From positions 1,392-65,391 of the forward strand of contig JAKSVT010000007.1 in NCBI GenBank assembly GCA_024407875.1: a stretch of DNA of 64,000 nt. Direction: 5' to 3'. This DNA is from Alphaproteobacteria bacterium (lineage in GTDB: Bacteria; Pseudomonadota; Alphaproteobacteria; CAAGCB01; CAG-977). The notes under the pieces are model-generated. The model did not search any database. It was not told where the DNA came from and saw nothing but the letters and a program-made list of their open reading frames with translations. Shown here in pieces: positions 46,477 through 63,740 of the stretch (position 1 is the first letter of the stretch; every line of letters starts with the position of its first letter). Position numbers and translations under genes: made by a program.

Positions 46477-46770
46477 ATGCCAACACCAGTTGCTACTATT
46501 GCTAATTTAACAGCTACAGGAGATGTAATCGTCGGACCAGGTGGAATTACTACAATGGTTAAAGGATTGCCTGTTGCTTGTATGGGAGATGCTGTTACTG
46601 GACCTATGTGTATAGGAGCAATTACGATGACTACTGCCTTAAACAAATTAGCAAAAGGTCGTCCAATTGCAAATTTAGGTTCTATGGTTACAGGTATAAA
46701 TCCTGCTGCTTTTGGAGCTCCAATGGCTACGGCAGTTGCTGTTTGTCCTAATGTTAATGAGATTGTTTAA
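46477..46770 (+). CDS. PAAR-like spike-tip protein (97 aa), atypical
   Basis: Three P-x-A/C-x-x-G repeats (LPVACMGD, GPMCIGA, RPIANLGS) in a small hydrophobic beta-rich protein, located between clpV and vgrG. Confidence 0.5.
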   Translation: MPTPVATIANLTATGDVIVGPGGITTMVKGLPVACMGDAVTGPMCIGAITMTTALNKLAKGRPIANLGSMVTGINPAAFGAPMATAVAVCPNVNEIV

Positions 46771-48040: not shown

Positions 48041-50581
48041 ATGAATTTAAAAGAAATGATTGTTTGCGGTGTAAACGGAGAAATTTCAGGAAAAGTTAGT
48101 TCACAAAAGGCAAATGATAAATTTTCATTCTATGCAAAGATTGATGATAATCAAAAAAATCCTTTTGTTATTAAATACATGATGCCAGTTGGTGGTGTAA
48201 CCAATGGGCTATATAGATTTCCAAAAGTAGGAGAAAAAGTTTTAGTATCAGAAGAAGGCGAAACAAGATATTTAATGGGATATCTTCCTAATTCTTTAAG
48301 TCAAGATTTTGATACAACTAATGAAACTGATACAGCTTATAAAAATGAAGGATTAGTTTTACGTTATAAAAAATCAGGCTCTAATAATTCAAATAAAGAA
48401 TATTCAGAGATTGGTTTTTATTCTAAGCAAAGTGACTTTTTAACGTCTCCAACAGAATTAAAAGATGAAAAAACAAAAATAAAGAAGATAATTGAAGATG
48501 ATTATGAGTATTATGTAAACACAAAAGACCCGTTGATTGCAGAGATAAGAGCTAATACTAAGAAAAATTTGGATAAATTTGGTCAACGTTCGAACGATTT
48601 CAATTTAGATCCTTTAAAAGGGGCGTTTGTTAATGCTCTTGTTGATTATAAAGTAGGGAATAAGATTGCAACTCTAAATATGGATAGTGTGGAGCTTTAT
48701 TCTACGGGAGATATTCAGTCAAAAGCTCAGAATATAAACGAATTGTTCGGCCAACGTTTATCATTAAGGTCTTCTTTCTTAAATGATGAAAATATACATA
48801 TAGACGATAAAGCAGTTCCATTAAAGAAAGATTTAAAAACAAAAGGTGAACTTTTAAAAGCAAAATCGAAAGAACTTATTTCAATTGAAAAGGAAATTGA
48901 AAAACTTCAAGAAGAGAAGTATGAGAAAAAGCAAAAGAAAGAGAATACAAGCAATATCGATAGTGCAATAAATACTAAAGTATCAAATTTAGAAAAATTA
49001 GGAGAACAATATAACAATTTAAGTAAAGAGATTGCTAAGCTCAAAAATGATATCAAATCAAAGAACGGAAAAAATATTCAGTTGTTTGATTATAGAAAAT
49101 CTGATGTAACAAAAGGTAGTATAGCAATAGTAGCCGACAATGAAATTTCGATAAATGCTAGGTCTGGAATTACTTTATCTGTTGGTGCTATAAAACTAAA
49201 GATTTCTCCGACGGGTGTTGATATTACATGTAATAGGGTAAATGGTGTAGGTAGAGGTGTTTTTGATAGTACTTTTAGTATGAAGCAAAATGGTTCTGTT
49301 TTGCTAACAGGTTCTACTGTAGGTATTTCAGGAACAAGATCTGTTTCAGTTGGAGATGGATTAGGCGGAAGATTATCTACAGAATTAGGAAACGTTGATA
49401 TAAAAGGTGGTTCAATATCAACTTCTACACAGAGTGCTTTTGTGATGACACAAAACTTAGCATGGTATCTTAATGACTTTGCTCATCAAATCACGGCTCT
49501 TTGTGAAAGTAATCCTACTAGATCATGGGCAAGAGATGTAACTGCAGATAGTTCTTGGGGGGCTGCTTTAAAAACAATTAAAAAGGTTATTGGTGTAGCA
49601 AATAAAGTTGCTCCTACAGGAGCCAAAACTGCAAACAATGATGTTAGACATGAAGCTATGGATGCAGTATCAAGATTAATCTCATTAATGTTAATAATAT
49701 TAGATAATGTTAAAAATGTTTTGATTGAAAAGAAAGTTAATAACAAACTAGCTATTAATTATAATCTCGAAACAGGAAAATTTAATACTTATGACAATAG
49801 ATTTGATTATGAAATGGCATTCGCTGTTTGTGAAGCTACGCTAATAACAACAATTATGTCATTGACAATTCTTTCTGCTAAAGAGGCTTATTTTCATCAA
49901 GCTTCTATTAAATATACTCAAGCCGGAAGTTTAGTTTTAGACTCTAAAGGTTATTATCAAGATTCTATACTAGCAAAAACAGCTAGAGCTGTACTTGCTG
50001 GTATTGCTAAACTTCAAGCTAAAAAGGAGGCTCATGATTCTAATAATGGTAATCCTGCTTTAACCAATGAAGAGGAGGAGTTCCTCAATAATCATAGAGA
50101 AACTAATATAAACGATAAAAAGACAGCATACGAAACTGCTCTTATTGAAGAGAAAAAAGCAGAAGATGATTTTAAAGCAGATCCTACTAATGCTACTAAA
50201 GAAACTGCTTATAAGAATGCTCTGGCAGAACGTAAGAGAAAAGAAAGAGAATATAGAGAGGTTAACAAATACCATGGAATAGTAGCAGGTGAAGATTATT
50301 ATTTAGGAAGGACTTTGTATAAGTCATATCAATTAGAAGGGGATGTTGTAAATGGATATACTGTTAAATGGGGTTCTATTTCAGATATAATTAAAAATGC
50401 TAAAGAAAGAGATGATGATGGTAATGAGTTTACAAATCGATTCACACAGTTAAATAATACTACTGCGATTTTAGGCTGGATTAATGATGCAGCAACTATA
50501 TGGGGGGCTTTCTCTTTAGCTTATTGTGATTACTATAATGTGATAACTCCTGAAACAAGGTCTAAATTAATTGAATTATAA
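48041..50581 (+). CDS. vgrG: VgrG C-terminal half: gp5-like OB-fold, coiled-coil insertion, beta-helix repeats, and ~380-aa uncharacterised C-terminal extension (846 aa)
   Basis: RFPKVGEKVLVSEEGETRYLMGYLPN is the gp5 OB-fold signature. Later GSIAIVADNEISINARSGITLSVGAIKLKISPTGVDI beta-helix-like repeats. AGGAG RBS 6 nt upstream of the ATG. Confidence 0.7.
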   Translation: MNLKEMIVCGVNGEISGKVSSQKANDKFSFYAKIDDNQKNPFVIKYMMPVGGVTNGLYRFPKVGEKVLVSEEGETRYLMGYLPNSLSQDFDTTNETDTAYKNEGLVLRYKKSGSNNSNKEYSEIGFYSKQSDFLTSPTELKDEKTKIKKIIEDDYEYYVNTKDPLIAEIRANTKKNLDKFGQRSNDFNLDPLKGAFVNALVDYKVGNKIATLNMDSVELYSTGDIQSKAQNINELFGQRLSLRSSFLNDENIHIDDKAVPLKKDLKTKGELLKAKSKELISIEKEIEKLQEEKYEKKQKKENTSNIDSAINTKVSNLEKLGEQYNNLSKEIAKLKNDIKSKNGKNIQLFDYRKSDVTKGSIAIVADNEISINARSGITLSVGAIKLKISPTGVDITCNRVNGVGRGVFDSTFSMKQNGSVLLTGSTVGISGTRSVSVGDGLGGRLSTELGNVDIKGGSISTSTQSAFVMTQNLAWYLNDFAHQITALCESNPTRSWARDVTADSSWGAALKTIKKVIGVANKVAPTGAKTANNDVRHEAMDAVSRLISLMLIILDNVKNVLIEKKVNNKLAINYNLETGKFNTYDNRFDYEMAFAVCEATLITTIMSLTILSAKEAYFHQASIKYTQAGSLVLDSKGYYQDSILAKTARAVLAGIAKLQAKKEAHDSNNGNPALTNEEEEFLNNHRETNINDKKTAYETALIEEKKAEDDFKADPTNATKETAYKNALAERKRKEREYREVNKYHGIVAGEDYYLGRTLYKSYQLEGDVVNGYTVKWGSISDIIKNAKERDDDGNEFTNRFTQLNNTTAILGWINDAATIWGAFSLAYCDYYNVITPETRSKLIEL

Positions 50582-50596
50582 GAAGGAAAATAGAAA

Positions 50597-50989
50597 ATGG
50601 CTTTAGATGAAGATGATAAATTAGTAATAAAAGCTGTTGTAGAGCCAATAATTGATACAGTAGGTATAGAATTGTTAACAGCAGCTGTAAATGCTGGTAT
50701 AAAAAAATTATCTGCAACAAATGTTGAAGAAAGTGATTTATCAGGTAAGAGAGATTTAAAACCTTCAGAACAAGAGGTTACAATAAGTAAAACAGAGACA
50801 GCAGCTTCAGAAACAGAAGGCAAATTGTCTAAAGATGGTGTGTCTGCTCAACATGGTGATATTGAAGCTTCAGAAACGACGGCTGTAGCACAAGGAGCTG
50901 AAGCAACAGCTTTAGAATCTGGTGCCCAAGCTGTAAGAACGAAAGCAGGTGCTTCAGATATTGAAGCAAAAGCTTTGAAGATAACCTGA
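50597..50989 (+). CDS. Hypothetical Ala/Thr/Glu-rich protein downstream of vgrG (130 aa)
   Basis: In operon position immediately after vgrG. Low-complexity acidic sequence. Not Hcp-like. Confidence 0.3.
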   Translation: MALDEDDKLVIKAVVEPIIDTVGIELLTAAVNAGIKKLSATNVEESDLSGKRDLKPSEQEVTISKTETAASETEGKLSKDGVSAQHGDIEASETTAVAQGAEATALESGAQAVRTKAGASDIEAKALKIT

Positions 50990-51021
50990 TATTTGCTATT
51001 GTATAATTTAAGGAATAAACA

Positions 51022-52200
51022 ATGAGTGATAATTTAAGCTGGACAAAACGTCATTTCGTCTTATTGAGATATCTTGAATTAAAAGATGTAATTGAAAAAG
51101 AACAATATAAGAAAAGACCAGATTTACAAGAATTCTATGAAAATAGAAAAAGTGTAGAAGATATAATTTGGCATTTTGCTGATAAATCTCGTTATAAATG
51201 TGCTTGTGATTTGCTTGCATATTCTTCAAATAGAAGAGCTGTAATTTGGTGGTTGTATTTATGTGTATTATCATTATTTGAAGAATTTAAAATTAAGCCA
51301 AATATGGATAGAGATATAGAAGATATAGCAAAATCTTTTAAACCTGTTGTTCCCGATTTTGCAAAAATAGAACCCCCAAAACCAACTGATGGACAAATTC
51401 AAGAATTGGAAAATGATTTGGCTGAAATAAAATCTGCAGTAGCTTCTGTTAGAGAACTTGTAAACCCTGAAGTTATGGCAGAAGTTGATGAAGCTATGGA
51501 TTATGCTAACCAATTGTTTAAAGATAAATATGGTTCTTTTCCATTAGATTTAATTAAAAAACAATTGGAAAATCAAAAAGATCCTATGCCAATAGATCCA
51601 GAATCTCCAATTTATAAAGCTGCAGATGAGTTGGAACAAAAATTACAAGCTGTTCGTAAAAAGACTATTGATACTATTAAATCTGTTATTCCTCCAACAA
51701 TTCCGGAGCACGATAAAAAAATTATGGATGATGCTTTGCGTGCTGTATATAAATGGGTTATTTCTCCTGATGAAATAAATTCAAAAATTTGTTTGGATGC
51801 AGGTAATGAGTGTCCAGATAAGCCTGCAGGTCTACTAGCATTATCTGCTTTTTGGGCCGGTGGAAATTTAATGCCTGGTTCACAACAAGTCGTTCCAACA
51901 CCTCCAGGTCTTGCTGCAAATGGAGCATGCCAGGTTTTATTAATGTGCTCTTTAGCAAAAGGTGGAATAAGAGACGTAAAAGAACGCTTTAAACTCTATT
52001 TTGAGATAGGCGTTGATGTTATGATTGGTAAAAATGTATGGGATGATATTGTAGAAGTTAACCAGAAGAAATCTGCTGTTTATGATAAAATCCATGTTGA
52101 TAAAGAGAAATTAGAAAAAAATACAAACAATGAAAATATAATGCCTTCTGAAAATGTTTCTAATTTGAAATATTCTAGATGGAAACCTGATATTAAATAA
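51022..52200 (+). CDS. Hypothetical protein, T6SS-associated by position (392 aa)
   Basis: Coding-like, co-oriented, between vgrG and the terminator before tssJ. No recognised family. Confidence 0.35.
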   Translation: MSDNLSWTKRHFVLLRYLELKDVIEKEQYKKRPDLQEFYENRKSVEDIIWHFADKSRYKCACDLLAYSSNRRAVIWWLYLCVLSLFEEFKIKPNMDRDIEDIAKSFKPVVPDFAKIEPPKPTDGQIQELENDLAEIKSAVASVRELVNPEVMAEVDEAMDYANQLFKDKYGSFPLDLIKKQLENQKDPMPIDPESPIYKAADELEQKLQAVRKKTIDTIKSVIPPTIPEHDKKIMDDALRAVYKWVISPDEINSKICLDAGNECPDKPAGLLALSAFWAGGNLMPGSQQVVPTPPGLAANGACQVLLMCSLAKGGIRDVKERFKLYFEIGVDVMIGKNVWDDIVEVNQKKSAVYDKIHVDKEKLEKNTNNENIMPSENVSNLKYSRWKPDIK

Positions 52201-52220
52201 ATTGTTCTGACTTATTTATG

Positions 52221-52278
52221 GCTATATTTCATTTAAATAGAAAATATTACTAAAGAAATGAAATATAGCTTTTTTATT
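52221..52278 (+). terminator. Rho-independent terminator-like hairpin after the vgrG-associated genes
   Basis: A 14-bp stem GCTATATTTCATTT (52221-52234) / AAATGAAATATAGC (52256-52269) with ~21-nt loop, followed by TTTTTTATT. Confidence 0.45.
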
Positions 52279-52529
52279 GTTAATATATTTAAAACAATAT
52301 ACGAGACAGTTTTTTAGGCAATTAAAATCTGCGGTATTTTAGTAATCATTAGAGCTTTTCTATAGCTTTAAATACGACTTTTTTCTGTTTAAACAATCTA
52401 TATTTTTTTAATCAAAAATTAATTTATTTTGTTGCTAAATCTTTTAAAAAAATATAAATATATCAAATAAGTGTTAATGTATTATTAACATTGTTTTTTG
52501 TTGTGTAAATTCTAAGGAAATGTTTAAGG

Positions 52530-53186
52530 ATGAAACATATATTCTATTTGTTGTTAATAAGTACTGTTATGTTAACGGGGTGCTATACAAAATGTGGAAT
52601 GGTTGCAGGCTTTGCTCCTAAACTAAAATCTTCTTATTCAAATAGATATCCTACGGTAGAACTTGATTATATGGCTATAACAGAGGATGAAGCCGTTGAA
52701 TTGTCGAGTATTTCTGTTGAGGAATATTTTTCTTTTTCTCAATTACGTAAATCTTTAAATCCATATACTATAGTTTTATCTTCCGAAGAAACAGAACCTC
52801 AAGAAATGCTTACAAAAGTTGATAATTGGGATAATTGGTTAGATAAAAACCCTGAAAAAATAGCTGTTGTTGTTAATATTCCAAAATTGGTTCAAAAAGA
52901 AAAAACAGATAAAGATAAAAACAAAGATAGTCGTCTTTTAATATATCCTTTAAAGAAAAGCTGGTTTTCTCCAAGAACGGATTATTTAGAAATTCGTCCT
53001 GGAAATGTTATAAAAATAGCTACTAGACCTGTTGATCCTGAAGCAAAAACCAAGAAAATAGCAAAACAAGAAAAAGAAGATGCTATTAAGAAAGCTGAAG
53101 AAGAACAAAAACAAGAAGAAATTAAACAAGCTGAAGAACGTAAGAAAAAGCGTAAATGCAGAAAAGTTAGATGTAAAGTAATGTAA
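52530..53186 (+). CDS. tssJ: TssJ-like outer-membrane lipoprotein with polybasic Cys-containing C-terminal tail (218 aa)
   Basis: Lipobox LLISTVMLTGC. Located directly upstream of tssK-tssL-tssM (conserved tssJKLM order). Unusual C-terminal KKKRKCRKVRCKVM. Confidence 0.5.
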   Translation: MKHIFYLLLISTVMLTGCYTKCGMVAGFAPKLKSSYSNRYPTVELDYMAITEDEAVELSSISVEEYFSFSQLRKSLNPYTIVLSSEETEPQEMLTKVDNWDNWLDKNPEKIAVVVNIPKLVQKEKTDKDKNKDSRLLIYPLKKSWFSPRTDYLEIRPGNVIKIATRPVDPEAKTKKIAKQEKEDAIKKAEEEQKQEEIKQAEERKKKRKCRKVRCKVM

Positions 53187-53204: not shown

Positions 53205-54587
53205 ATGCGTTTTGATGAAAGTATACACTGGAATAATGGTTTATTTATGCAGCCTCATCATTTGCAATATATGCAAAGATATATAGATTCTATGGCTCAT
53301 GCTAATAGACAATTAATATCTTCATATCCATATGGATTGATTGATTTTGTCCCTGATTTGGATGCTTTGTCTGGGGATAGAGTTGTAATAAAACGCTTAT
53401 CAGCTGTTATGCCTGATGGAACAGAAATTAGCCAACCAGGTAATTGTGTTATTCATCCTTTAGATTTAAAAAATGTTTTAAATGAACAAGTTTCATCATT
53501 TAAGGTTTATTTAGGTATCCCAGTTTGGTCTGAATTTGATGCAAACTTATCTGAAAATGAGAAGAATGAAAAGAAACGTAGATTTTTAACTGTTGAAAAA
53601 TCTATTAGAGATGAAAATACTGGGGATGACGAAATATCTGTTGTTACAAGAAGATTAAATGTTTCATTGTTAACAGAATTCGATGATATGGAGGATATGG
53701 TTACTATCCCTCTTATGAAAATTAATGTTCTTATTAATGATAACGCAGAAAAACGTCTTGAATGTGATGAAAAATTCATTCCTCCATTTATTGTTGTTTC
53801 AAATGATAGTTCTTTAGTTTCATTAGTTTCTAATTTAATGTCTGAAGTACGTCGTTGCAGAGATAAATTATTAAACGATTTGATGTTAACAAAGTTTACA
53901 TCAGAAAACTTTTCTGGAGCTGAAGCTTATAACACATTACAATATCGTGTTTTAAATTTATATGAAAACAGGTTATCAATGGAGATTTCTGGATGTAAAA
54001 TATCTCCATTTGAATTGTATTTTGAATTAAGATCTTTCTTAGCAGAATTAATGGGACTTCATCCATTAAATGAAATTAAAGAGATTCAAAATTACAATCA
54101 CTTAGATTGTTCTCCTCAATTTTATGAATTAGTAAATGATATTCAATCAATGATTATGTCTGAAGGTGGAGCAAGTTATATTGCTTTGAAACTTAATCCA
54201 ATTGATGATGGAGATTATTTATTTACAGAAATTCAAACACAACACATTGTAAAAGCTAGTGAATTTTATTTGGCTGTTCGTGCAGATTTAGAAGATCGTA
54301 GAGTTATTCAAGCTTTAGAAAAAGGTGATACATTTAAGATAATTAATCCAAGAGCAAAGATGATGCGTATTCGTGGTATCAAATTATCTGAAATGAGATA
54401 TCCTCCAAGATTTTTGCCAAATTTAAACAATACACTTTGGTTTAAACTTGACGTAGAAGAAACCCCTAAAACATGGCAAGATATTTGTTCTGAACATGGG
54501 ATTCTTGTTGATTATGCTAAGGATTTATTCCCAAGCTTAGAAGCTACTTTATTCTTAACAATTGTTGATTCTGAAACAAGGAATTAG
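53205..54587 (+). CDS. tssK: Type VI secretion baseplate protein TssK
   Basis: N-terminus MRFDESIHWNNGLFMQPHHLQYMQRY matches the conserved TssK start (W-EG-L-PQHFQ). Confidence 0.85.
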   Translation: MRFDESIHWNNGLFMQPHHLQYMQRYIDSMAHANRQLISSYPYGLIDFVPDLDALSGDRVVIKRLSAVMPDGTEISQPGNCVIHPLDLKNVLNEQVSSFKVYLGIPVWSEFDANLSENEKNEKKRRFLTVEKSIRDENTGDDEISVVTRRLNVSLLTEFDDMEDMVTIPLMKINVLINDNAEKRLECDEKFIPPFIVVSNDSSLVSLVSNLMSEVRRCRDKLLNDLMLTKFTSENFSGAEAYNTLQYRVLNLYENRLSMEISGCKISPFELYFELRSFLAELMGLHPLNEIKEIQNYNHLDCSPQFYELVNDIQSMIMSEGGASYIALKLNPIDDGDYLFTEIQTQHIVKASEFYLAVRADLEDRRVIQALEKGDTFKIINPRAKMMRIRGIKLSEMRYPPRFLPNLNNTLWFKLDVEETPKTWQDICSEHGILVDYAKDLFPSLEATLFLTIVDSETRN

Positions 54588-54590
54588 TTA

Positions 54591-55424
54591 ATGTCCGCTT
54601 TAGAAAATATTTGTCGTCCAATATTAATTAGTATGTGTAATTATTGGCAACTTATTGAAAATAATCAATCTGTTGACAAAGATACTTTTAAAAAAGAAAT
54701 AAGATCTTTAATTAGTGAAGCCAGAGAAACAGCTAATAAATCTCCTTCATTAGAAAGAGAATTTTCTCGTGTTGAAAAGCCTTTGATTTTCTTCGTTGAC
54801 TATATGGTTAAAGAAGGAAATTTTCCATTTAAAAATGAATGGAGAGAAATAGGGCGTGAATATAATGAACTTTCAGGCGATGAAAAATTCTTTGATATGT
54901 TAACAGAAACTTTGGATGACCCAGATTCTGCGAACAGTTTAGAAATTTTCTATAATGTTATGGGATTAGGGTTTAGTGGTATTTACCAAAACGATCCTGA
55001 ATATCTTGAACGTAGAATGAAGGTTTGTGCATCTCGTTTTGATACTAATAGTTTAGATTTGACTAAAGAAGAAATTATAAAAGTTGATGAAACAATTTTA
55101 GATAAAAAAGTGATTCCTAATGAAAAACAAATGTTTAAAGTTAGAAATTTGGTTTTCTTCTGCTTGTTTGTAATGCTTGTTACTTTTGGAGTCAATTTGT
55201 GGAAATTCTTATCTGTTACGTATGAATATAGAGATGCTTTAGATAGGGCTGTGGATGCATCTATACCAAACTCAATTATTGTTGATAGTAGAAATAGACA
55301 CCGTGCAAAAAAACAAACATTTTCAAATGAAAAAAGCAGTAAAAAAGATAAGGCTTTTTTAGAAGAAAATAAGAATCGTAAACAACTGAAGAAAAAGAAT
55401 AGAAATAATTTGGAGGAAAACTAA
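54591..55424 (+). CDS. tssL: Type VI secretion membrane protein TssL (DotU/IcmH family)
   Basis: Cytoplasmic DotU-like domain followed by a single C-terminal TM helix (LVFFCLFVMLVTFGVNLW). No OmpA/peptidoglycan-binding extension. Confidence 0.75.
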   Translation: MSALENICRPILISMCNYWQLIENNQSVDKDTFKKEIRSLISEARETANKSPSLEREFSRVEKPLIFFVDYMVKEGNFPFKNEWREIGREYNELSGDEKFFDMLTETLDDPDSANSLEIFYNVMGLGFSGIYQNDPEYLERRMKVCASRFDTNSLDLTKEEIIKVDETILDKKVIPNEKQMFKVRNLVFFCLFVMLVTFGVNLWKFLSVTYEYRDALDRAVDASIPNSIIVDSRNRHRAKKQTFSNEKSSKKDKAFLEENKNRKQLKKKNRNNLEEN

Positions 55425-55425
55425 G

Positions 55426-58400
55426 ATGGATAAGTCTTTAGCTGCCGTAAAGAATGTTAAAACTCCAGATTTATCATCCATTCCAACATGGATGTATTGG
55501 GTAATTGGTATACTTGTTGCCGTAGTTCTTATATTTTTAGTTGTTTTACCATTTCTTAGAAAAATTCGTCGCAAACAAATTAAAGTAAAAGAAACTACAG
55601 AAATCAAAAAAGATTTGATGATTTGGCATCACCTTGCTCAGTTGGTTAGAGGTGGATCTGCACATCAAAAAGCAAAGAAAGTTTTGTCTGATCAAATAGC
55701 AAACATCGATATAGCTTTTGAAAAAGGTATGAAGATGTTGTCTGATCACAACAGAAATGTTAATAATCAACCGTGTTATTTAATTGTTGGCGAACCTATG
55801 AGTGGTAAGTCAACATTGCTTCGTAATAGTGAACAAGAATTAGTTGTTTCAAAAGAAGAAGAAAGAGACGAAGAAAGTAATAAGGGGGAAGCTCTTCGTT
55901 TGTGGATGGGAGCCAAATCTTTAACTTATGATATTGGTGGTCATATTTTCTTCGATAGATGGATGGAAGGCTCTAGTGCTGAATGGAGCTATATTGCAAA
56001 GATAATTTCTAAAAAACGTCGTAAAAAACCTCTAGATGGTGTTATTTTAACTATTCCTGCTGACGCTTTATTAGCCGATGATGATGGATTAACACAACAA
56101 AAAGCTGTTTTAATGTCAACAGAATTAGGTCAATTATTGCATACTTTAGGTATGTATATGCCTTGTTATGTAGTTGTTACTAAAACAGATATGGTTAACG
56201 GCTTTAGTGAATATATGATGTCCATTGCAGAAGATTTGCGTTCTCAAATTTTTGGATGGGTAAATGATGATCCAAAAGCAAGATATGATGTAGATAAATT
56301 TAATATTTTCTGGAAAGACTTGTTATATAGATTGCGCAAAGGTTGTGCTAAAAACATGATTTCCAAAAACGTTACATCTCGTTTGACAGGATATGCAAAC
56401 AAAATGGAAATCAATGGTAAAATATTCGTATTTCCTGATAACTTTGCAAAAATGTATAAAAACATATCTACTTATCTAAAAGCTATTTTTGGCGAGGGTA
56501 ATTATTATGGTGCAGGAAACGCTTTGTTTGAAGGCTTGTTCTTCACATCTGCTGTAGAAGGTGATTTTACATTAAGTCCGGATTTAGCGATGATTTGCGA
56601 ACAAAAAATTGATGATATGCCAGTTGTGCATGAACATAAAATGAATTCAAAACCTTTATTTATTAAAGATTTACTTCAAAAAGTAATATTTAAGAATTCT
56701 GTTAATGCTGCATTCACACAAGTTAAAAAAGCAAAATTAAATATACCTAAATATGTTGCATGTTTTTGTATGCTTTTAATTGGAGGATTGTGGGCTTTTA
56801 GAGGAGTTTCTAAAAATGTTGATTTTGAAACAGCCTTACAACCAAAAATTTTATACTTGCAAACTTTAACTGACATGATGAAAAGTGGGGGTGTATTTAA
56901 TTCTCCTCTTATAAAGAAAACTGAAGAAGGTCAATATGTTTTGAATTCAGATCCTGTTGAAAATATGGATATTTCAAGACTTCATTTCTTCTTTGAAGCA
57001 TTTACAGAAAGAGAATCAAAAATTGTAGCACCGTTTGGCTTTAAATTAGCAAGTCTTTTTGTTTTTGGTTTTGAAAAGAGTATGGGATATGACGATTTTG
57101 CTATAATTATAAACCAATTGTTTGGCTTTATGATTAGAACTCCATTAATTAAATTAGTTGGAGACAAAATCGATTCTGAAGGAACAAATGCTCATTTAAC
57201 TGTAAGGAAAAAAGGGGCTGTTGCATCTTATTCTTTATTAAATGAAGTAAGATTTGAAGATTTTACAGATTTATTTGCTGATAAAAAGGCTTTTGATGTT
57301 TCAAACATGATGTATTATTTAATGCCTGAAATTTCAGCAGATACTATTAATATCTTAGATGCTTATTTGCCTCAATATGATGAAAAGTATACAGGAACAT
57401 TTGATTCAACATATCTTTATACTGAAGATTATTCTAGATCTTTAAAAAAAGGTGTTTCTTCAATATTAAATTCTTGGAATGATTTAACAGCATATCCAAG
57501 TAGTTCTTTTTCAAAAATTAGAACATTAATCAAGAATACTAGACTTTTAGAAAGCTCTTATGCTGATATCAATCACCGTGTAAATGTTATGGAAAGTGCT
57601 CAATCTTTAGAAGAACTTACACAACAAATTAATTCTCTTGTTGATTTATTAAAAGAACAAGAAAATCGTACGGAAACTATTATATTAACATATAAAAACT
57701 TACTTTCTTTAACGGATACAAAGAAAATCGATGTTTCTAAAGAAGAAAGTAAATCTATGGGAACAGAAGATTTAGCTGTTAGAATGTTGTTAAATAAAGC
57801 TACTGACGAATATAAGAATCATTTAAAAACAGACTTTTCTTTCTTAATAGATAACGCAGATGAATTATCTTCAGAAGAATTTACAGTTTCTGATATTCGT
57901 AAATCATTGCCTAGAATTAGAAAAAATATCTTAATAGAGATTGACGCTAAGAAAAAAGAAATGAGTAAAGGTTTAAATGACTTTAGAAATAAACCTTTAT
58001 TACAATGGCAATTTGTTGAAAAAGAAGGTGCTTCTAATTATACCTATCATATTCTTTATGATGGCTATAAATACTTAGATAACCTAGAAATTCCTACACG
58101 TGCTAAATTGCTAGAAAATGATTTTAGAACAAATTGGTCTAGAGCAAATAGATCTATTCGTGATGTTAATGCTGATTTTGAAGATTTTATGGAAATTTAT
58201 TCTAAGAGTGAAAATTTAAAACCTCAATTAGATTTAATGAAACGTGTTTACGATTTGTTCTTTGCTTTAATTAAGTATTCAATTGTTGATACAGAATTAT
58301 CTAAACTTCCTGAAACTGTAAGCGAGTTGTATAGTTATGTCGAACAAAAATCTGAAGAAAATCAAGTATTTGGATTTACAGAAGATTTAGCAAGAGAAAC

Positions 58401-59802
58401 TATGGGAGACTTACGTTATTTGAAAGGCTATGATCCTAAGGAATTTAGTAAAACTTTAGGGGATTTGTTTAAGTTCGCTCACCAAATTATGAATGCACAA
58501 AAGTCAAAAACAGACAAAAATAATGAAAAAGATAAACAACAACAAATTTCACAATTGTTTACTAAGGAATTCCAACATTACAAAAAATCTTTAGAGGTTT
58601 TTGAAGGATATTTGGATGATTATATTCGTTATTGGGGTGGATATTCTGATCGCGTATATGTTCCAGCAAAAGATTGGCATGAATTTAAGGTTCGTTTGAA
58701 GGTATTAAAAGCTTATAAGATTAACTCGTTATTACAACAAGTTTATTCTCAATGCTTAACTATTTTGAAATCAGTAGATGAATCTTTGATTTCAGATCAC
58801 TTGAAGCAAAAGAAGAAAGCTTTATTAGATTTGTTAAGTGATAAAATTAGTATCATGACACCTTTGTTTACAGATGCTGGTGAAAAGACTTTGTTAGGAT
58901 GGTCTGAATTACCAAACAGTTCTGAACAAGCTTGGGAGCAAATTTCTTCAACTTCAGATGCTACATTAAAAGAAACGTTGTTTAACGTATATTCAAAGAC
59001 ACCTCGTAGTAAGATTTCTTGGTGGAATGAATTTATTGATAATGGTATTGCTCTTTTAAAACATGAAAATGAGAAACGTATTGAAAATAATTATGTAGAT
59101 TTAATTAAGTCTATGAATATGTTCCCATTATGTAAGAATTGTCAAACAAAGGGTGTTATTAACGTTAATGATATGAAGAAATTAACTACATTACTTTCTT
59201 CTAGTGTTTCTGTTCCAAAAGCAAAAGAAGACGAAGAAAGCGGTAATGATAGTAAAGAAGAGTTGTTTGATAGAAAACTTAACTTGTTTAAAGATTTGAA
59301 GACAATTGATTGGGCAAAAGAAATCTTAACAGTTGCAAAGCAATTACAAAATACCAAAAAGCCTTTGTCTTGGACTTTGTATCAAGCAGGTGTTGAAAAT
59401 CAAACAGGTTTATTAGAAGAAAATGAACTCTCTGCAATTAACAGATTCCGTTATGTTGAAGTTGTAACTGGTAAAAAGACTAAACGTTATAGCACAGCTG
59501 CAATGAAAGATAGTGCAATCGGTAGAGGTAAAGCTGAAGATAAGTTGATTATTAACTTCTATAAATATTCAACAGATACTAAACCTGAGATTTCTTTGAG
59601 ATATAACACCACTTGGGCTATCTTTAAGATCTATTTGGCTAATGGTGCTATTTCTGATCCTGCTGAAGATAAAGTTTATATTCCTTTGAATATTGTTGAT
59701 AAAGACGGCACAAAGTATAAGTATTTTGTAACTGTTAAATTTAACAATGAAATCTTAAAAGCGGATGAATGGCCAACCAAGAAGAATTGGAATAAAAAAT
59801 AG
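55426..59802 (+). CDS. tssM: Type VI secretion membrane protein TssM (IcmF family), 1458 aa
   Basis: N-terminal TM helix, Walker A GEPMSGKST, a later TM segment (YVACFCMLLIGGLWAF), and a large C-terminal periplasmic domain. Start overlaps the tssL stop. Confidence 0.9.
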   Translation: MDKSLAAVKNVKTPDLSSIPTWMYWVIGILVAVVLIFLVVLPFLRKIRRKQIKVKETTEIKKDLMIWHHLAQLVRGGSAHQKAKKVLSDQIANIDIAFEKGMKMLSDHNRNVNNQPCYLIVGEPMSGKSTLLRNSEQELVVSKEEERDEESNKGEALRLWMGAKSLTYDIGGHIFFDRWMEGSSAEWSYIAKIISKKRRKKPLDGVILTIPADALLADDDGLTQQKAVLMSTELGQLLHTLGMYMPCYVVVTKTDMVNGFSEYMMSIAEDLRSQIFGWVNDDPKARYDVDKFNIFWKDLLYRLRKGCAKNMISKNVTSRLTGYANKMEINGKIFVFPDNFAKMYKNISTYLKAIFGEGNYYGAGNALFEGLFFTSAVEGDFTLSPDLAMICEQKIDDMPVVHEHKMNSKPLFIKDLLQKVIFKNSVNAAFTQVKKAKLNIPKYVACFCMLLIGGLWAFRGVSKNVDFETALQPKILYLQTLTDMMKSGGVFNSPLIKKTEEGQYVLNSDPVENMDISRLHFFFEAFTERESKIVAPFGFKLASLFVFGFEKSMGYDDFAIIINQLFGFMIRTPLIKLVGDKIDSEGTNAHLTVRKKGAVASYSLLNEVRFEDFTDLFADKKAFDVSNMMYYLMPEISADTINILDAYLPQYDEKYTGTFDSTYLYTEDYSRSLKKGVSSILNSWNDLTAYPSSSFSKIRTLIKNTRLLESSYADINHRVNVMESAQSLEELTQQINSLVDLLKEQENRTETIILTYKNLLSLTDTKKIDVSKEESKSMGTEDLAVRMLLNKATDEYKNHLKTDFSFLIDNADELSSEEFTVSDIRKSLPRIRKNILIEIDAKKKEMSKGLNDFRNKPLLQWQFVEKEGASNYTYHILYDGYKYLDNLEIPTRAKLLENDFRTNWSRANRSIRDVNADFEDFMEIYSKSENLKPQLDLMKRVYDLFFALIKYSIVDTELSKLPETVSELYSYVEQKSEENQVFGFTEDLARETMGDLRYLKGYDPKEFSKTLGDLFKFAHQIMNAQKSKTDKNNEKDKQQQISQLFTKEFQHYKKSLEVFEGYLDDYIRYWGGYSDRVYVPAKDWHEFKVRLKVLKAYKINSLLQQVYSQCLTILKSVDESLISDHLKQKKKALLDLLSDKISIMTPLFTDAGEKTLLGWSELPNSSEQAWEQISSTSDATLKETLFNVYSKTPRSKISWWNEFIDNGIALLKHENEKRIENNYVDLIKSMNMFPLCKNCQTKGVINVNDMKKLTTLLSSSVSVPKAKEDEESGNDSKEELFDRKLNLFKDLKTIDWAKEILTVAKQLQNTKKPLSWTLYQAGVENQTGLLEENELSAINRFRYVEVVTGKKTKRYSTAAMKDSAIGRGKAEDKLIINFYKYSTDTKPEISLRYNTTWAIFKIYLANGAISDPAEDKVYIPLNIVDKDGTKYKYFVTVKFNNEILKADEWPTKKNWNKK

Positions 59803-59822
59803 TTCATCATTAGGCTGCTAAT

Positions 59823-62800
59823 ATGATTATTAAATTACATAGACTTAGAGGAAGATTTTTAGCATTATTATTAGTAATGCTGTCTTCCAATGTCTATGCT
59901 CAAGATTGTAGTAATTCAAACAATATTTGCGGAAAAATAGCTAATAATCCAAGTCTTATTGATAGTGGCTATGAAGTAGATACTTTTTTAAAAGTAAAAG
60001 AACTAAAAGCAAATTTAGGAAATATATATGGCGCCTTTATATATAATAACAAAATGGAAGATGTTAGTGTTAAGCCTGGCACAGGAGTGGCTTTGTTTGG
60101 ATTAAGCGCAGATGTTTCTAAATTTGAAATTGGTGCAGCAAATATTCAAGGTGGGCTTTTATATAATTCAGGTAGTCTAAATATAGTAAATGGTTTTGAT
60201 TTTATAAAAAATGAAGATAAATTTTTTATAACTTCTGCTAGATTGTTAGAAGGTGGATATTTATATAATTCAGGAAAAATAAATAACAATGCTCCTAAAT
60301 TTAAATTAAATTCTAATGTTTTATCTAATGGAGATGTTCACGGAGGATTTATTTATAATTCAGGGACAATTAATAACGTTTCTTTTGATGCAAGTGTAGC
60401 AATTACTGATAAAGTTATATTAGTTCGTGCGACAGGAAATTTATTAGGTGGTGTTGTTTATAATACGGGTACAATAACTAATGTAGGTGAAGAAACTAAA
60501 AGTGTAGTAGCACAGTCAAATACAGCTTCTGCTATAGGAGGATTTATTTATAACGAAGGTACATTAGTAATTGATTCAGATTTGATAGCCAATCAGGTTA
60601 AAGCAAATTCAGGAAGTGGTTTTGGCGGAGCTGCAGCAAATGATGTTGGTGTTCTTACATTTAAATCTAAATCATTCAAAAATAACGCTGCATATGCTAA
60701 TATAAATTCATATGGTGGTGCTATATTTAATGGTAAAGTAAGTTCTGCTAAAGTTGATAAAGGTAGAAAAATTGAATTTGATTATCAAGGTGGAGATACA
60801 ACTTTTGAAAATAATTTTGCTCAAGCTAATATAGGAGCTGCTTATGGCGGAGCTATTTTAAACAGTACAGATCCTGCTGACACTACTAAGATTTATACAG
60901 TTGATTTTAAAGGTAAAAAATATATATTTACACAGAATTATACAGAAGCTAAGGTAAATTATTCTGGAGGTGGGGCCATCTCAAATGATGGAATTATAAA
61001 CTTTAATAGTACAGGAATCTTGGAATTTACCCAAAATTATTCAATAAGTAATAATAATAAACCACAACAATCAAATAAAATTGTTGCATCAGTTACTGCT
61101 TCTGGTGGAGCTATTGATAATGATGGAAATATTAATTTTGCTTCTAGCGTTACAAATGTAAATTTTTCAAAAAATTATACTAAAGGTTATGCTGCTTTTG
61201 GTGGAGCTATGTCTTCTGATAAAAGCATAAAAAGAGGTGTGATAACAACAACCATAAGTACAATTTTTAATTTCGAAGAGAATTATGCTTCTGGTTCTGA
61301 ATTTGCCTACGGTGGCGCTATTGCAAATACAGGAACAATTAGCACTTTAAAAGGTACTTTTTCAAAAAATTATGCTGATGCAGGGAAAAAAGCCTATGGT
61401 GGCGCTATTGCAAATGTTTCAGGCTCAATAACTTTTGAAGATACAAATTTTGAATATAACTACGCAATTTCTAAAGATGTTGCGATGGGTGGTGCTATAT
61501 ATAACGAAAACGGTAACATTATTATAAAAGCAGTAGGAACAGACGTGCTTTTTAAAAATAATTATGTTGTTGGAAAAAATTCAGTTTTTGGTGGAGCTAT
61601 ATACAATAACAAAGAAATACAGTTATTACCAGCAGCTGATAAAAGTATAGGATTTTCAGTTTGGGAAGGAAGCACAGATTCATTAAAAGACAAGGGAAAA
61701 TTTACTACAAATGATATTTATAATGATGGCGTTTTGAAACTAGGCGACGCTAAAAACAGTTTTTCTGGTTCGATTAGTTTTTATACTGATGTTTTGGGAA
61801 ATGGATCTATAGAAGTAAATGGGGCAAATGTTGTTATTAATGATGTTAAATTTAATCAGAAAAATTTAACTATAAATTCAGGTTCTGTTTTAGCATCATT
61901 AAAATCTTTTAATATTTCTAATACTATTGTTAATAATGCTAGTTTATCACTAAATGGAATAGGTGTGATAAATAACATATCAGGTTCAGGAACTTTAACT
62001 CTTACACCTGAAACAAAATCAGATAAAAAAGAAGAAAACAAAATTACTATTAAAGGAAATATAGGAAACAAAATTGTTGTTAGCGGTGCTGTTGGAGGAG
62101 CTACAGATCCTGTTAATGTATATAACGAAGGAACTATTCTTAACGATTTGACGATAAAGAGTGGCTCTTTATATAATAAAAATATAATCCAGGGGAAAGT
62201 TGACATAAAGGCCAATGCTTATTTAGTTGTTAACGGTAATTCAAAAATATATGGAGATATTTTAGGTGAAGATGATTCAACGCTTGCTGTTTTAGAAAAA
62301 AATAACTTGTTTAAGAATAATCAAATAAATGTTTCTAATGCGATTTTCGATCATGCTTATGCAAAGATTGATACGAACGATTTTTTCATAAAAAATAGTT
62401 TTGTTCTTGATTCTGAACTTGATTTTATTAATAAAGAAATAACAACTTCTAAATTTGAAAATATATTTTTTCAAAACGCAAATTTTGCAATAGATGTGGA
62501 TTTAGAAGAATTAGAAATGGACCAATTTTCTATTGGTAGTTTAAGTTCTAGTTCTGTCAGCAGTCGTTTTATTATTTCTAATGTTAATTTGATGACAGAT
62601 ACAAAACAAGAATCTGTAACTATTCCTTTGTTTGTTGATACAGATCAGGCTGTTTTAAATGCTTTAAAAAACAAAGTTTCAACTAATATTAAAAAGCCTA
62701 TTTATTCAAGAATATATAAATATGATGTTTCTTTTGTAAATAATAGCACAGATTTGCTTTTTAGACGTTATAAAGGAAACAAACCTTCAGATTTTAACCC

Positions 62801-63740
62801 ATATACATATTCAAATGTGGTAACAGCGCAATCTTTAATGTCCTTACAAACAAATATTGCTAATACAGCAATGGCTGCGTTAGATACTGTAACTTTTAGT
62901 ATGAGTTCCTCTAAAATATCCGGATTAAATGGTGGAGATGAGGAAGAAAATGAACCTTTAAGATTAGGTAATAGTTGGTATAAGCTTATTGGGTTTAATG
63001 AAGATCTTAAATTTAAAGATTTTGAAAATGTAAAATCCAAAACAGGCTCAATAATTGCTGGTATAAATACTGAAGATATCGAAATCGGCGACGGAGATAT
63101 GTTGTTTGGTGCCTATGTTGGTGGTGTTTTGGGTAAGCAAAAATATACGAATAATGAAAACTCTCAAAAGGGTGCATATTTTGGTCTTAACTCTTCATTA
63201 TTCTACGATCAATTCTATATTCAATCCAACTTTACTTATGGTTTTGTAAAAACAGACAATAAGAATATGTATGGAACAGATAAAATTGATTCAACATGGT
63301 ATAATGTAACTTTAAAAACGGGGTACAATATCCCTTTGGATGTTTTTGAAAGATGGACATTACAACCAAATTTAGCATTCGGACTTACAAGAGTAAAAAC
63401 CAAGGACTATACTTCTAAATCAGGAATAAAATTTGAGCCTGGTAAAAGTAAAGCTTATAATATTGATCCTGGTGTAAAACTCTCAAGAGAAATGAGTGAA
63501 AATTGGCATTTCTTTGCAACGTATAAACGATCATATATCAAGAATAAAAGTAAAGAAACTGTAGTTGATAAAGATGTTTATTTGCCTAAGTTAGCTCTCA
63601 AGTCTTATAAAGAAATTGGGGCTGGTATAGATGTTGATTTGAATGAAGATTGGACAATGAATTTAAATGTTAACCATAGGTCCGGAGATATTGAAGGATG
63701 GAATGGCAGTTTAACATTTAACTATTATTTCTCTCTATAA
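59823..63740 (+). CDS. Autotransporter with polymorphic-membrane-protein (Pmp)-like GGA[ILV]/FxxN repeats (1305 aa)
   Basis: Signal peptide (LALLLVMLSSNVYAQD). At least 12 repeats of GGAI/GGFI-Y/F-N-x-G-x-I (for example GGAIYNENGNIIIK, GGAIANTGTIS). C-terminal ~280 aa has alternating amphipathic strands ending ...SLTFNYYFSL, consistent with a beta-barrel translocator. Only 20 nt downstream of tssM. Confidence 0.75.
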   Translation: MIIKLHRLRGRFLALLLVMLSSNVYAQDCSNSNNICGKIANNPSLIDSGYEVDTFLKVKELKANLGNIYGAFIYNNKMEDVSVKPGTGVALFGLSADVSKFEIGAANIQGGLLYNSGSLNIVNGFDFIKNEDKFFITSARLLEGGYLYNSGKINNNAPKFKLNSNVLSNGDVHGGFIYNSGTINNVSFDASVAITDKVILVRATGNLLGGVVYNTGTITNVGEETKSVVAQSNTASAIGGFIYNEGTLVIDSDLIANQVKANSGSGFGGAAANDVGVLTFKSKSFKNNAAYANINSYGGAIFNGKVSSAKVDKGRKIEFDYQGGDTTFENNFAQANIGAAYGGAILNSTDPADTTKIYTVDFKGKKYIFTQNYTEAKVNYSGGGAISNDGIINFNSTGILEFTQNYSISNNNKPQQSNKIVASVTASGGAIDNDGNINFASSVTNVNFSKNYTKGYAAFGGAMSSDKSIKRGVITTTISTIFNFEENYASGSEFAYGGAIANTGTISTLKGTFSKNYADAGKKAYGGAIANVSGSITFEDTNFEYNYAISKDVAMGGAIYNENGNIIIKAVGTDVLFKNNYVVGKNSVFGGAIYNNKEIQLLPAADKSIGFSVWEGSTDSLKDKGKFTTNDIYNDGVLKLGDAKNSFSGSISFYTDVLGNGSIEVNGANVVINDVKFNQKNLTINSGSVLASLKSFNISNTIVNNASLSLNGIGVINNISGSGTLTLTPETKSDKKEENKITIKGNIGNKIVVSGAVGGATDPVNVYNEGTILNDLTIKSGSLYNKNIIQGKVDIKANAYLVVNGNSKIYGDILGEDDSTLAVLEKNNLFKNNQINVSNAIFDHAYAKIDTNDFFIKNSFVLDSELDFINKEITTSKFENIFFQNANFAIDVDLEELEMDQFSIGSLSSSSVSSRFIISNVNLMTDTKQESVTIPLFVDTDQAVLNALKNKVSTNIKKPIYSRIYKYDVSFVNNSTDLLFRRYKGNKPSDFNPYTYSNVVTAQSLMSLQTNIANTAMAALDTVTFSMSSSKISGLNGGDEEENEPLRLGNSWYKLIGFNEDLKFKDFENVKSKTGSIIAGINTEDIEIGDGDMLFGAYVGGVLGKQKYTNNENSQKGAYFGLNSSLFYDQFYIQSNFTYGFVKTDNKNMYGTDKIDSTWYNVTLKTGYNIPLDVFERWTLQPNLAFGLTRVKTKDYTSKSGIKFEPGKSKAYNIDPGVKLSREMSENWHFFATYKRSYIKNKSKETVVDKDVYLPKLALKSYKEIGAGIDVDLNEDWTMNLNVNHRSGDIEGWNGSLTFNYYFSL

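Follow-up and report, generated by a model that had tools for sequence, protein, structure and literature searches.

Why should the membrane-complex genes of a type VI secretion system (T6SS) be followed, at close distance and on the same strand, by the gene of an autotransporter (AT), and does this neighbourhood reflect a shared function? The question is raised by a stretch of 64,000 nucleotides (nt), here called the window (positions 1,392 to 65,391 of the forward strand of contig JAKSVT010000007.1, GenBank assembly GCA_024407875.1), from a metagenome-assembled genome (MAG) of an alphaproteobacterium, in which an AT gene directly follows tssM. The stop codon of tssM (TAG) is at 59800-59802 and is separated from the AT start by a gap of 20 nt (59803-59822), which confirms the observation of an earlier note on this DNA that the gene lies 20 nt downstream of tssM on the same strand; the interpretation given there, coordinated expression of an adhesin with the injector, is partly supported. 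The encoded protein is a classical type Va monomeric autotransporter, having a passenger with repeats of the type found in the chlamydial polymorphic membrane proteins (Pmps), and the comparison of related loci establishes a recurrent, lineage-stable attachment of ATs to this type of T6SS, in which no fewer than two AT subfamilies and two points of insertion take part.

The AT gene closes a tight run of genes that encode the T6SS membrane complex, of which the features are as follows (strand +).

52530..53186, + strand: tssJ-like lipoprotein gene, which opens the tight sub-operon; lipobox LTGC in the N-terminus MKHIFYLLLISTVMLTGC
53205..54587, + strand: tssK (PF05936, 206.6 bits)
54591..55424, + strand: tssL (DotU; PF09850, 60.5 bits)
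55426..59802, + strand: tssM, divergent, 1458 residues (PF14331, IcmF-related_N, 133 bits)
59803..59822, + strand: tssM-AT junction of 20 nt, with a weak AGG Shine-Dalgarno sequence and no hairpin
59823..63740, + strand: AT gene, an intact open reading frame (ORF) of 1305 residues with an ATG start, identical to NCBI MCQ2914196.1

The successive gaps in this run are 18, 3, 1 and 20 nt. An AT start upstream of 59823 is impossible because of an in-frame TAG at 59811-59813, and because the window DNA has about 30% G+C throughout, an ORF of 3.9 kb is not a chance occurrence. When folded, the tssM-AT junction gives -7.1 kcal/mol (z -0.05), that is, no stable hairpin, and scanning of the junction finds neither a terminator-like site nor a notable promoter-like match. 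The sigma-70-like matches between 50 and 64 kb (67, against 77 expected from shuffles, with none notable before the AT gene) are uninformative. The gene on the far side of the AT is convergent, and its end lies within a few bases of the AT stop, so the AT gene is the last of the run. Judged from the spacing only, it is likely to be co-transcribed with the membrane-complex genes. No gap inside the cluster is larger than the very A+T-rich intergenic region of 329 nt before the tssJ-like gene (52201-52529), which is the obvious place for an internal promoter of tssJ-K-L-M-AT; a promoter within the 3' end of tssM may also drive the AT gene. The G+C content of the AT gene (29.7%) and its G+C content at third codon positions (GC3, 15.3%) match those of the T6SS genes (GC3 12-22%), and recent horizontal acquisition of the gene is therefore unsupported. 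Phase variation is likewise rejected, as neither homopolymer tracts (A/T of at least 8, G/C of at least 6) nor meaningful DNA tandem repeats are found in or before the gene. In NCBI, the gene upstream (MCQ2914195.1) is labelled 'type VI secretion system protein', and the title of MCQ2914196.1 is 'MAG: autotransporter outer membrane beta-barrel domain-containing protein [Alphaproteobacteria bacterium]'. The autotransporter label is therefore already given by the NCBI pipeline; the protein is a divergent addition to a well-known class, and by itself the gene is a fairly ordinary one for a putative surface adhesin.

The domain anatomy of the AT protein follows the order that is expected for this class, with these parts.

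59823..59900, + strand: Sec-type signal peptide, residues 1-26, assigned by sequence inspection
60150..61727, + strand: Pmp-type repeat region, residues 110-635, 15 tandem units of the form GG[A/x][ILV]xN...FxxN, predicted regular β-helix
61728..62777, + strand: C-terminal passenger region, residues 636-985, poorly modelled up to about residue 860 and then β-rich
62799..62927, + strand: predicted linker α-helix of 43 residues before the barrel, residues 993-1035 (residues 888-930 of the AlphaFold2 model)
62970..63734, + strand: 12-stranded outer-membrane β-barrel, residues 1050-1304 (AlphaFold2 strands, model residues 945-1199; PF03797; TIGR01414; Foldseek)

The N-terminus, MIIKLHRLRGRFLALLLVMLSSNVYA, which is followed by QD, has a positively charged n-region rich in Lys and Arg, a hydrophobic FLALLLVMLS core and the residues V-Y-A before the likely cleavage site, and from inspection only it is likely that residues 1-26 resemble an ordinary Sec signal peptide. 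The repeat units are 29-46 residues long and all open with GG[A/F/L/V/Y][ILVAM]xN; FxxN[YFA] is also present in every unit from the sixth onward. When the motif counts are compared with 2000 shuffles, GGA[ILV] is observed 8 times (shuffle mean 0.2, maximum 2), GG.[ILVAM].[NS] 16 times (mean 0.7, maximum 5) and FxxN 20 times (mean 8.5, maximum 19). The alignment of the AT with 22 distant homologues has the consensus GGAIYNxxGxIxxIxGxFxxNYAxxxxxxAxGGAIYN, which is the paired-motif rung reported for the chlamydial Pmps (PMC10715098, PMC11166332).

The AlphaFold2 model, which is built for residues 106-1305 with a 23-sequence alignment and has a mean predicted local distance difference test score (pLDDT) of 69.8, shows a regular β-helix for residues 106-603 (pLDDT mostly 80-95). 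The segment of residues 604-860 (model residues 499-755) has a pLDDT below 50 and is unreliable, and the β structure of the passenger is back at model residues 749-877, remaining β-rich to about residue 985. The linker helix and the 12 long strands of the barrel have pLDDT values of about 77-93. In the Foldseek comparison of the model with the PDB, the best match is the β domain of BrkA (E 6.5e-11, template modelling score 0.81-0.85), followed by EspP, AIDA-I, Hbp, NalP and EstA, which are all solved autotransporter β domains; a sequence search of the passenger against the PDB gives no match. The model predicts that the passenger is β-helical, and it is presumed to be displayed on the surface.

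The profile searches are in agreement with this anatomy when fragments of the protein are scanned. Residues 1001-1305 match PF03797 with 59.5 bits (cut-off 26) and TIGR01414 with 53 bits (cut-off 16), and residues 461-620 match PF02415 (Chlam_PMP) with 28.3 bits (cut-off 20.6) and TIGR01376 with 15.7 bits (cut-off 15). On the remaining fragments PF02415 scores only 12.8-14.6 bits, below the same cut-off (14.4 for the N-terminal piece of 659 residues), such that the match to the Pmp repeat model is marginal and varies with the fragment scanned. The middle domain of the Pmps, PF07548, is not matched on fragments over residues 621-1046 (E<=1) or on larger pieces (E<=10), and the scan of fragments over residues 636-985 gives no Pfam family at all. 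The full-length hmmscan of the AT finds no Pfam or NCBIfam family, even at E<=10, and it is the fragments only that score; we attribute this to the HMMER composition filter acting on a protein rich in Asn, Gly, Ser, Ile and Lys. Most of the AT homologues (P0002-P0120) have a '-' in the precomputed Pfam column, probably from the same cause, and full-length scans seem to under-annotate such Asn/Gly/Ser-rich repeat proteins systematically. The claims of the earlier note that the protein is an autotransporter and that it carries GGA[ILV]/FxxN repeats are borne out by these scores, by the 12 modelled strands, by the Foldseek matches to solved AT barrels and by the motif counts; the barrel prediction, of which a failure would have told against an autotransporter, succeeds. 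The description of the protein as Pmp-like holds for the repeats only, as no PF07548 match is found and the host is an alphaproteobacterium.

The T6SS to which this AT gene is joined is of an unusual type. The window TssM is a member of a divergent family of about 1450 residues, in which PF14331 is the only recognised domain of the window protein; PF06761 and PF06744 are not recognised in it. Its homologues are found in other Alphaproteobacteria MAGs from rumen, horse faeces and human gut (40-47% identical), in termite-gut Treponema (30-34%) and in Mucispirillum, Victivallales, Succinivibrionaceae and others (about 25%). Full-length homologues come almost only from gut- or host-associated anaerobes of unrelated phyla, including Sutterella, and the TssM type looks, from these sequences, like a distinct T6SS subtype that is spread by horizontal transfer among gut bacteria. 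The habitat of the window organism would lie in the same range of rumen, horse faeces, human gut and termite gut, going by the sources of its T6SS relatives only. The order vgrG ... DUF6931, tssJ-like, tssK, tssL, tssM is kept in the alphaproteobacterial loci. One contig that carries this Gram-negative T6SS cluster (L011, CAVCSV010000011.1, 53% G+C) is filed as 'Limosilactobacillus gorillae'; its TssM is about 47% identical to that of the window and is split into three ORFs, and the contig is almost certainly a mis-binned alphaproteobacterial one.

From the identities of their TssM proteins, the alphaproteobacterial loci fall into five lineages, which differ in the presence and position of the AT gene.

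Lineage A (L005, L010, L011, L055, L085, L086; G+C 52-55%): no AT; transporters or opposite-strand genes after tssM
Lineage B (L006/L124, L007, L013, L118/L119, L123; G+C 47-56%): AT of 1439-2062 residues directly after tssM
Lineage C (L042, L116; G+C 34-36%): AT of 1378 residues inside the cluster, between the DUF6931 gene and the tssJ-like gene
Lineage D (the window; G+C 30%): the AT described here, 20 nt after tssM
Lineage E (L117; G+C 44%): no AT; AI-2E transporter after tssM

An AT is thus joined to the T6SS cluster in three of the five lineages (B, C and D). The TssM proteins of lineage B are 70-76% identical among themselves and 42-43% identical to that of the window, and the AT of this lineage is found in at least five species, belongs to a subfamily unrelated to the window AT and has copies that are 59-80% identical among species; in L013 it matches PF03797 with 116 bits. 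For the lineage-C AT, of which the two copies are 94% identical, this match is 95 bits. The ATs of lineages B and C have in common an N-terminus resembling an extended signal, and their barrels are 30% identical. The window AT is unlike these: its signal peptide is plain, its passenger has Pmp repeats, and BLAST makes no link between its barrel and theirs. Compared within lineages, the AT shows the same degree of conservation as TssM (94% versus 84%, 66% versus 70% and 76-80% versus 71%, for AT and TssM, respectively).

Two further arrangements are seen in lineage B. In L123 (10001-23558), three AT genes follow tssM in a row, namely an AT of the L013 type (2062 residues) and then two subtilase (Peptidase_S8) autotransporters of 1137 and 1172 residues. 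In L007 (11026-13446), the AT is broken into a piece of 349 residues and an open-ended piece of 447 residues, matching residues 1-347 and 361-772 of the L013 AT, which reflects either a pseudogene or an error of the assembly.

The nearest homologues of the window AT are 25-31% identical over most of its length, and those on the three contigs examined lie in unrelated contexts with no T6SS link; therefore, the family of the window AT is not generally linked to T6SS. The distant relatives of the lineage-B AT are not T6SS-linked either, and the occurrence of distant relatives of both AT subfamilies in unrelated contexts suggests that the ATs were recruited to the cluster and do not descend there from a single inherited gene. 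The tblastn search of 80 TssM loci with the window AT finds no orthologue downstream of tssM; the linkage in the relatives concerns other AT subfamilies, which are found by Pfam scans of the downstream ORFs. The metagenome scan with the TssM alignment adds 31 loci and no further AT-bearing lineage. All AT barrels detected in 417 kb of alphaproteobacterial loci are contiguous with the T6SS cluster. Two independently seeded barrel hidden Markov models (HMMs) detect no AT in the alphaproteobacterial flanks away from the cluster, nor within 10 kb in about 95 non-alphaproteobacterial TssM loci; the first of these models misses the two protease-type ATs of L123, and the second, which is seeded on them, detects all known ATs. 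With respect to the conservation of the gene next to tssM in relatives, no orthologue of the window AT is found there, and it is other ATs that are found at the cluster in lineages B and C. The pairing that had been called unusual gains from the finding that ATs occur on the same T6SS type in three of the five related lineages, and it is probably not accidental. If as many as 3% of the genes in these genomes are assumed to be AT genes, the probability of an AT as the next gene after tssM in two of the five lineages is about 0.01, which is a rough estimate and not a computed test, and which leaves aside the third lineage, with the AT inside the cluster.

The favoured reading, to which we give a probability of about 0.4, is that the AT is a co-transcribed surface adhesin that aids the contact of the T6SS with target cells. 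As expected from knowledge of the family, the protein would be exported by Sec, the C-terminal 12-strand barrel would enter the outer membrane through the β-barrel assembly machinery, and the passenger would emerge, the helix staying in the pore. The passenger would fold as a long β-helix, of which the Pmp-type GGA[ILV]/FxxN repeats would form the rungs. Being expressed together with the T6SS membrane complex (tssJKLM), the adhesin would keep target cells, which may be bacterial competitors or host epithelium, near enough for contact-dependent T6SS firing. Pmp repeat motifs mediate adhesion in Chlamydia, as described for the C. pneumoniae Pmps (PMC2997323), and TasL, which is encoded in the T6SS2 cluster of Vibrio fischeri, is a lipoprotein that mediates the cell-cell contact for killing (PMC9040878). 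For the AT of the window, both functional coupling to the T6SS and coordinated expression with it are what we infer from the arrangement of the genes. A wider proposal, which is more doubtful, is that a gut-associated T6SS subtype, with a TssM of 1450 residues lacking the usual C-terminal domains, has repeatedly captured AT adhesins as cis-encoded targeting modules, such that the type V adhesin would set which cells are reachable by the type VI injector.

Several observations weigh against the adhesin serving T6SS contact, and most of these fit an explanation that we regard as equally serious, namely that the AT serves colonisation or aggregation as an adhesin in its own right, standing by chance where the T6SS cluster ends on its 3' side; this edge would be a permissive and variable site that takes up surface-protein genes repeatedly, which are then co-inherited with the cluster and not functionally coupled to it. 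The AT is absent from two of the five lineages (the six loci of lineage A, and L117 of lineage E), and the gene after tssM varies by lineage, being MatE, a P-type ATPase, HydF, an AI-2E transporter or an AT. The ATs are from different subfamilies, of which the nearest relatives are elsewhere in genomes, and the two extra protease-type ATs of L123 give the site the appearance of an adhesin or AT islet. In most lineage-B genomes, the tssM-AT gap of 55-62 nt contains a strong, conserved, GC-rich and terminator-like hairpin (L013 14417-14470, L006 14381-14441, L007 10972-11025, L118 14441-14501 and L124 7556-7614), flanked by an A-run and a T-run, of which the three that were folded give -21 to -28 kcal/mol (z -4.4 to -6.0); transcription of the AT may there be at least partly separate, or the hairpin, acting as terminator or attenuator, could set the ratio of AT to T6SS expression. 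The window lineage also has no close relative, the best TssM match being 47% and the best AT match 25-31%, and a sample of five lineages is small. Several features speak against uncoupled neighbours: three of the five lineages have this one protein class joined to the cluster or inside it, with two different points of insertion, it is kept in at least five lineage-B species with a conservation equal to that of TssM, and none is detected elsewhere in the flanks. The tssM-AT gap of the window and of L123, at only 20-21 nt, is free of a hairpin, for which the 21 nt of L123 leave no room.

It is also possible, and clearly less probable than either of these readings, that the AT serves an interaction with self or kin, either by auto-aggregation of siblings, which would alter T6SS exposure or organise microcolonies, or as a recognition tag. 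Chlamydial Pmps form homomeric and heteromeric oligomers (PMC8326573), and cell-aggregating autotransporter or fimbrial adhesins change the outcome of T6SS competition (PMC11005336; bioRxiv 10.64898/2026.03.26.714566); the sequence does not discriminate self-binding from target-binding. A role of the AT as a structural or biogenesis part of the T6SS, such as an outer-membrane anchor or channel that compensates for the unusual TssM C-terminus, is suggested by its position right after the membrane-complex genes and by a TssM without recognisable PF06761 and PF06744. This role is rejected as most improbable, since no AT accompanies the T6SS of lineages A and E, of which the gene set and the divergent TssM are the same, and none is found within 10 kb in any of the non-alphaproteobacterial relatives (more than 90 loci of this TssM type); moreover, a TssJ-like lipoprotein is present and the ATs are non-orthologous between lineages.

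The AT shares with the type Va autotransporters BrkA, EspP, AIDA-I, NalP and Hbp (PF03797/TIGR01414) the likely Sec signal and the predicted β-helical passenger, linker helix and 12-strand C-terminal barrel, although it is only 12-15% identical to the solved barrels. With the chlamydial Pmps (PF02415, PF07548 and PF03797) it has in common the overall autotransporter architecture and, as reported for the Pmps (PMC10715098, PMC11166332), a GGA[ILV]/FxxN pair that comes back with every unit, each of 27-30 residues or more, and is modelled as the rungs of a regular β-helix. It differs from them in that no PF07548 middle domain is detected, in that many of its units have GG[FLVY] for GGA and in that it is, as far as the window shows, a single gene in an alphaproteobacterial MAG, whereas the Pmps are a paralogous family. 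The likeness to TasL is that of a large surface-protein gene inside a T6SS cluster with the same proposed contact role; TasL is a lipoprotein of which the role is experimentally shown, the role of the window AT, an autotransporter, is inferred, and homology between the two is not expected. The genes bimA and saf/pagN are precedents for adhesin genes near T6SS loci. BimA of Burkholderia pseudomallei is a type V protein of which the gene is located and co-regulated (by VirAG) with T6SS-5 (PMC6439308), but it is of the trimeric type Vc, polymerises actin in host cells and is encoded in a neighbouring operon with virAG, not after tssM. In Salmonella, the safABCD fimbriae and the invasin PagN share the T6SS island of pathogenicity island 6 (PMC13101988), but these belong to other adhesin classes and are transcribed as separate units, pagN being monocistronic. 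In the open-access literature searched, we found no description of a tssJKLM unit that ends with a classical autotransporter gene, nor of a single T6SS subtype that has captured ATs repeatedly, and a 2026 review of T6SS accessory factors has no occurrence of 'autotransporter', 'adhesin' or 'adhesion'.

The T6SS cluster as a whole comprises the genes of 37090-59802, all on the + strand, in the order tssA, tssB, tssC, tssE, tssF, tssG, clpV, a small PAAR-like ORF and a short vgrG, followed by a protein of 846 residues with no family, a conserved protein of 130 residues, the DUF6931 protein, the tssJ-like lipoprotein (39-44% identical at the same position in relatives), tssK, tssL and tssM. No family of Hcp, the tube protein, is recognised among the cluster ORFs scanned in this range. 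The PAAR-like ORF (46477-46770, + strand, 97 residues), between clpV and vgrG, matches PF05488 with 24.4 bits (E 3.4e-5), under the cut-off of 27, and a counterpart of 97 residues is called in L117. The 130-residue protein (50597-50989) is conserved and rich in Ala, Thr, Glu and Lys; the DUF6931 protein (51022-52200) always follows it, and a variable large protein (48041-50581) precedes it. Lineage-B relatives have two copies of this module (48041-52200), which may have an effector or adaptor function. Directly upstream of tssA, between the housekeeping his/aro genes and the T6SS cluster, there is an ORF of 757 residues (34597-36870, + strand) which has the lowest G+C content of the region (25.5%) and matches no Pfam family.

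T6SS attack requires cell contact. For habitats that are viscous or in flow, gut mucus among them, it is to our knowledge known for very few systems, chiefly TasL, how attackers secure and choose such contacts. If the linkage of the AT to the T6SS is only positional, the window adds one more divergent Pmp-repeat autotransporter. As a lead, the recurrence of the AT-T6SS linkage is real and can be tested, its carriers being at present uncultured. If the wider proposal of repeated capture is true, type V and type VI secretion would for the first time be seen functionally coupled within one operon. ATs acting as contact or specificity factors would join two secretion pathways that are usually treated apart, and would provide a genomic marker from which the target range of uncultured gut bacteria could be read.

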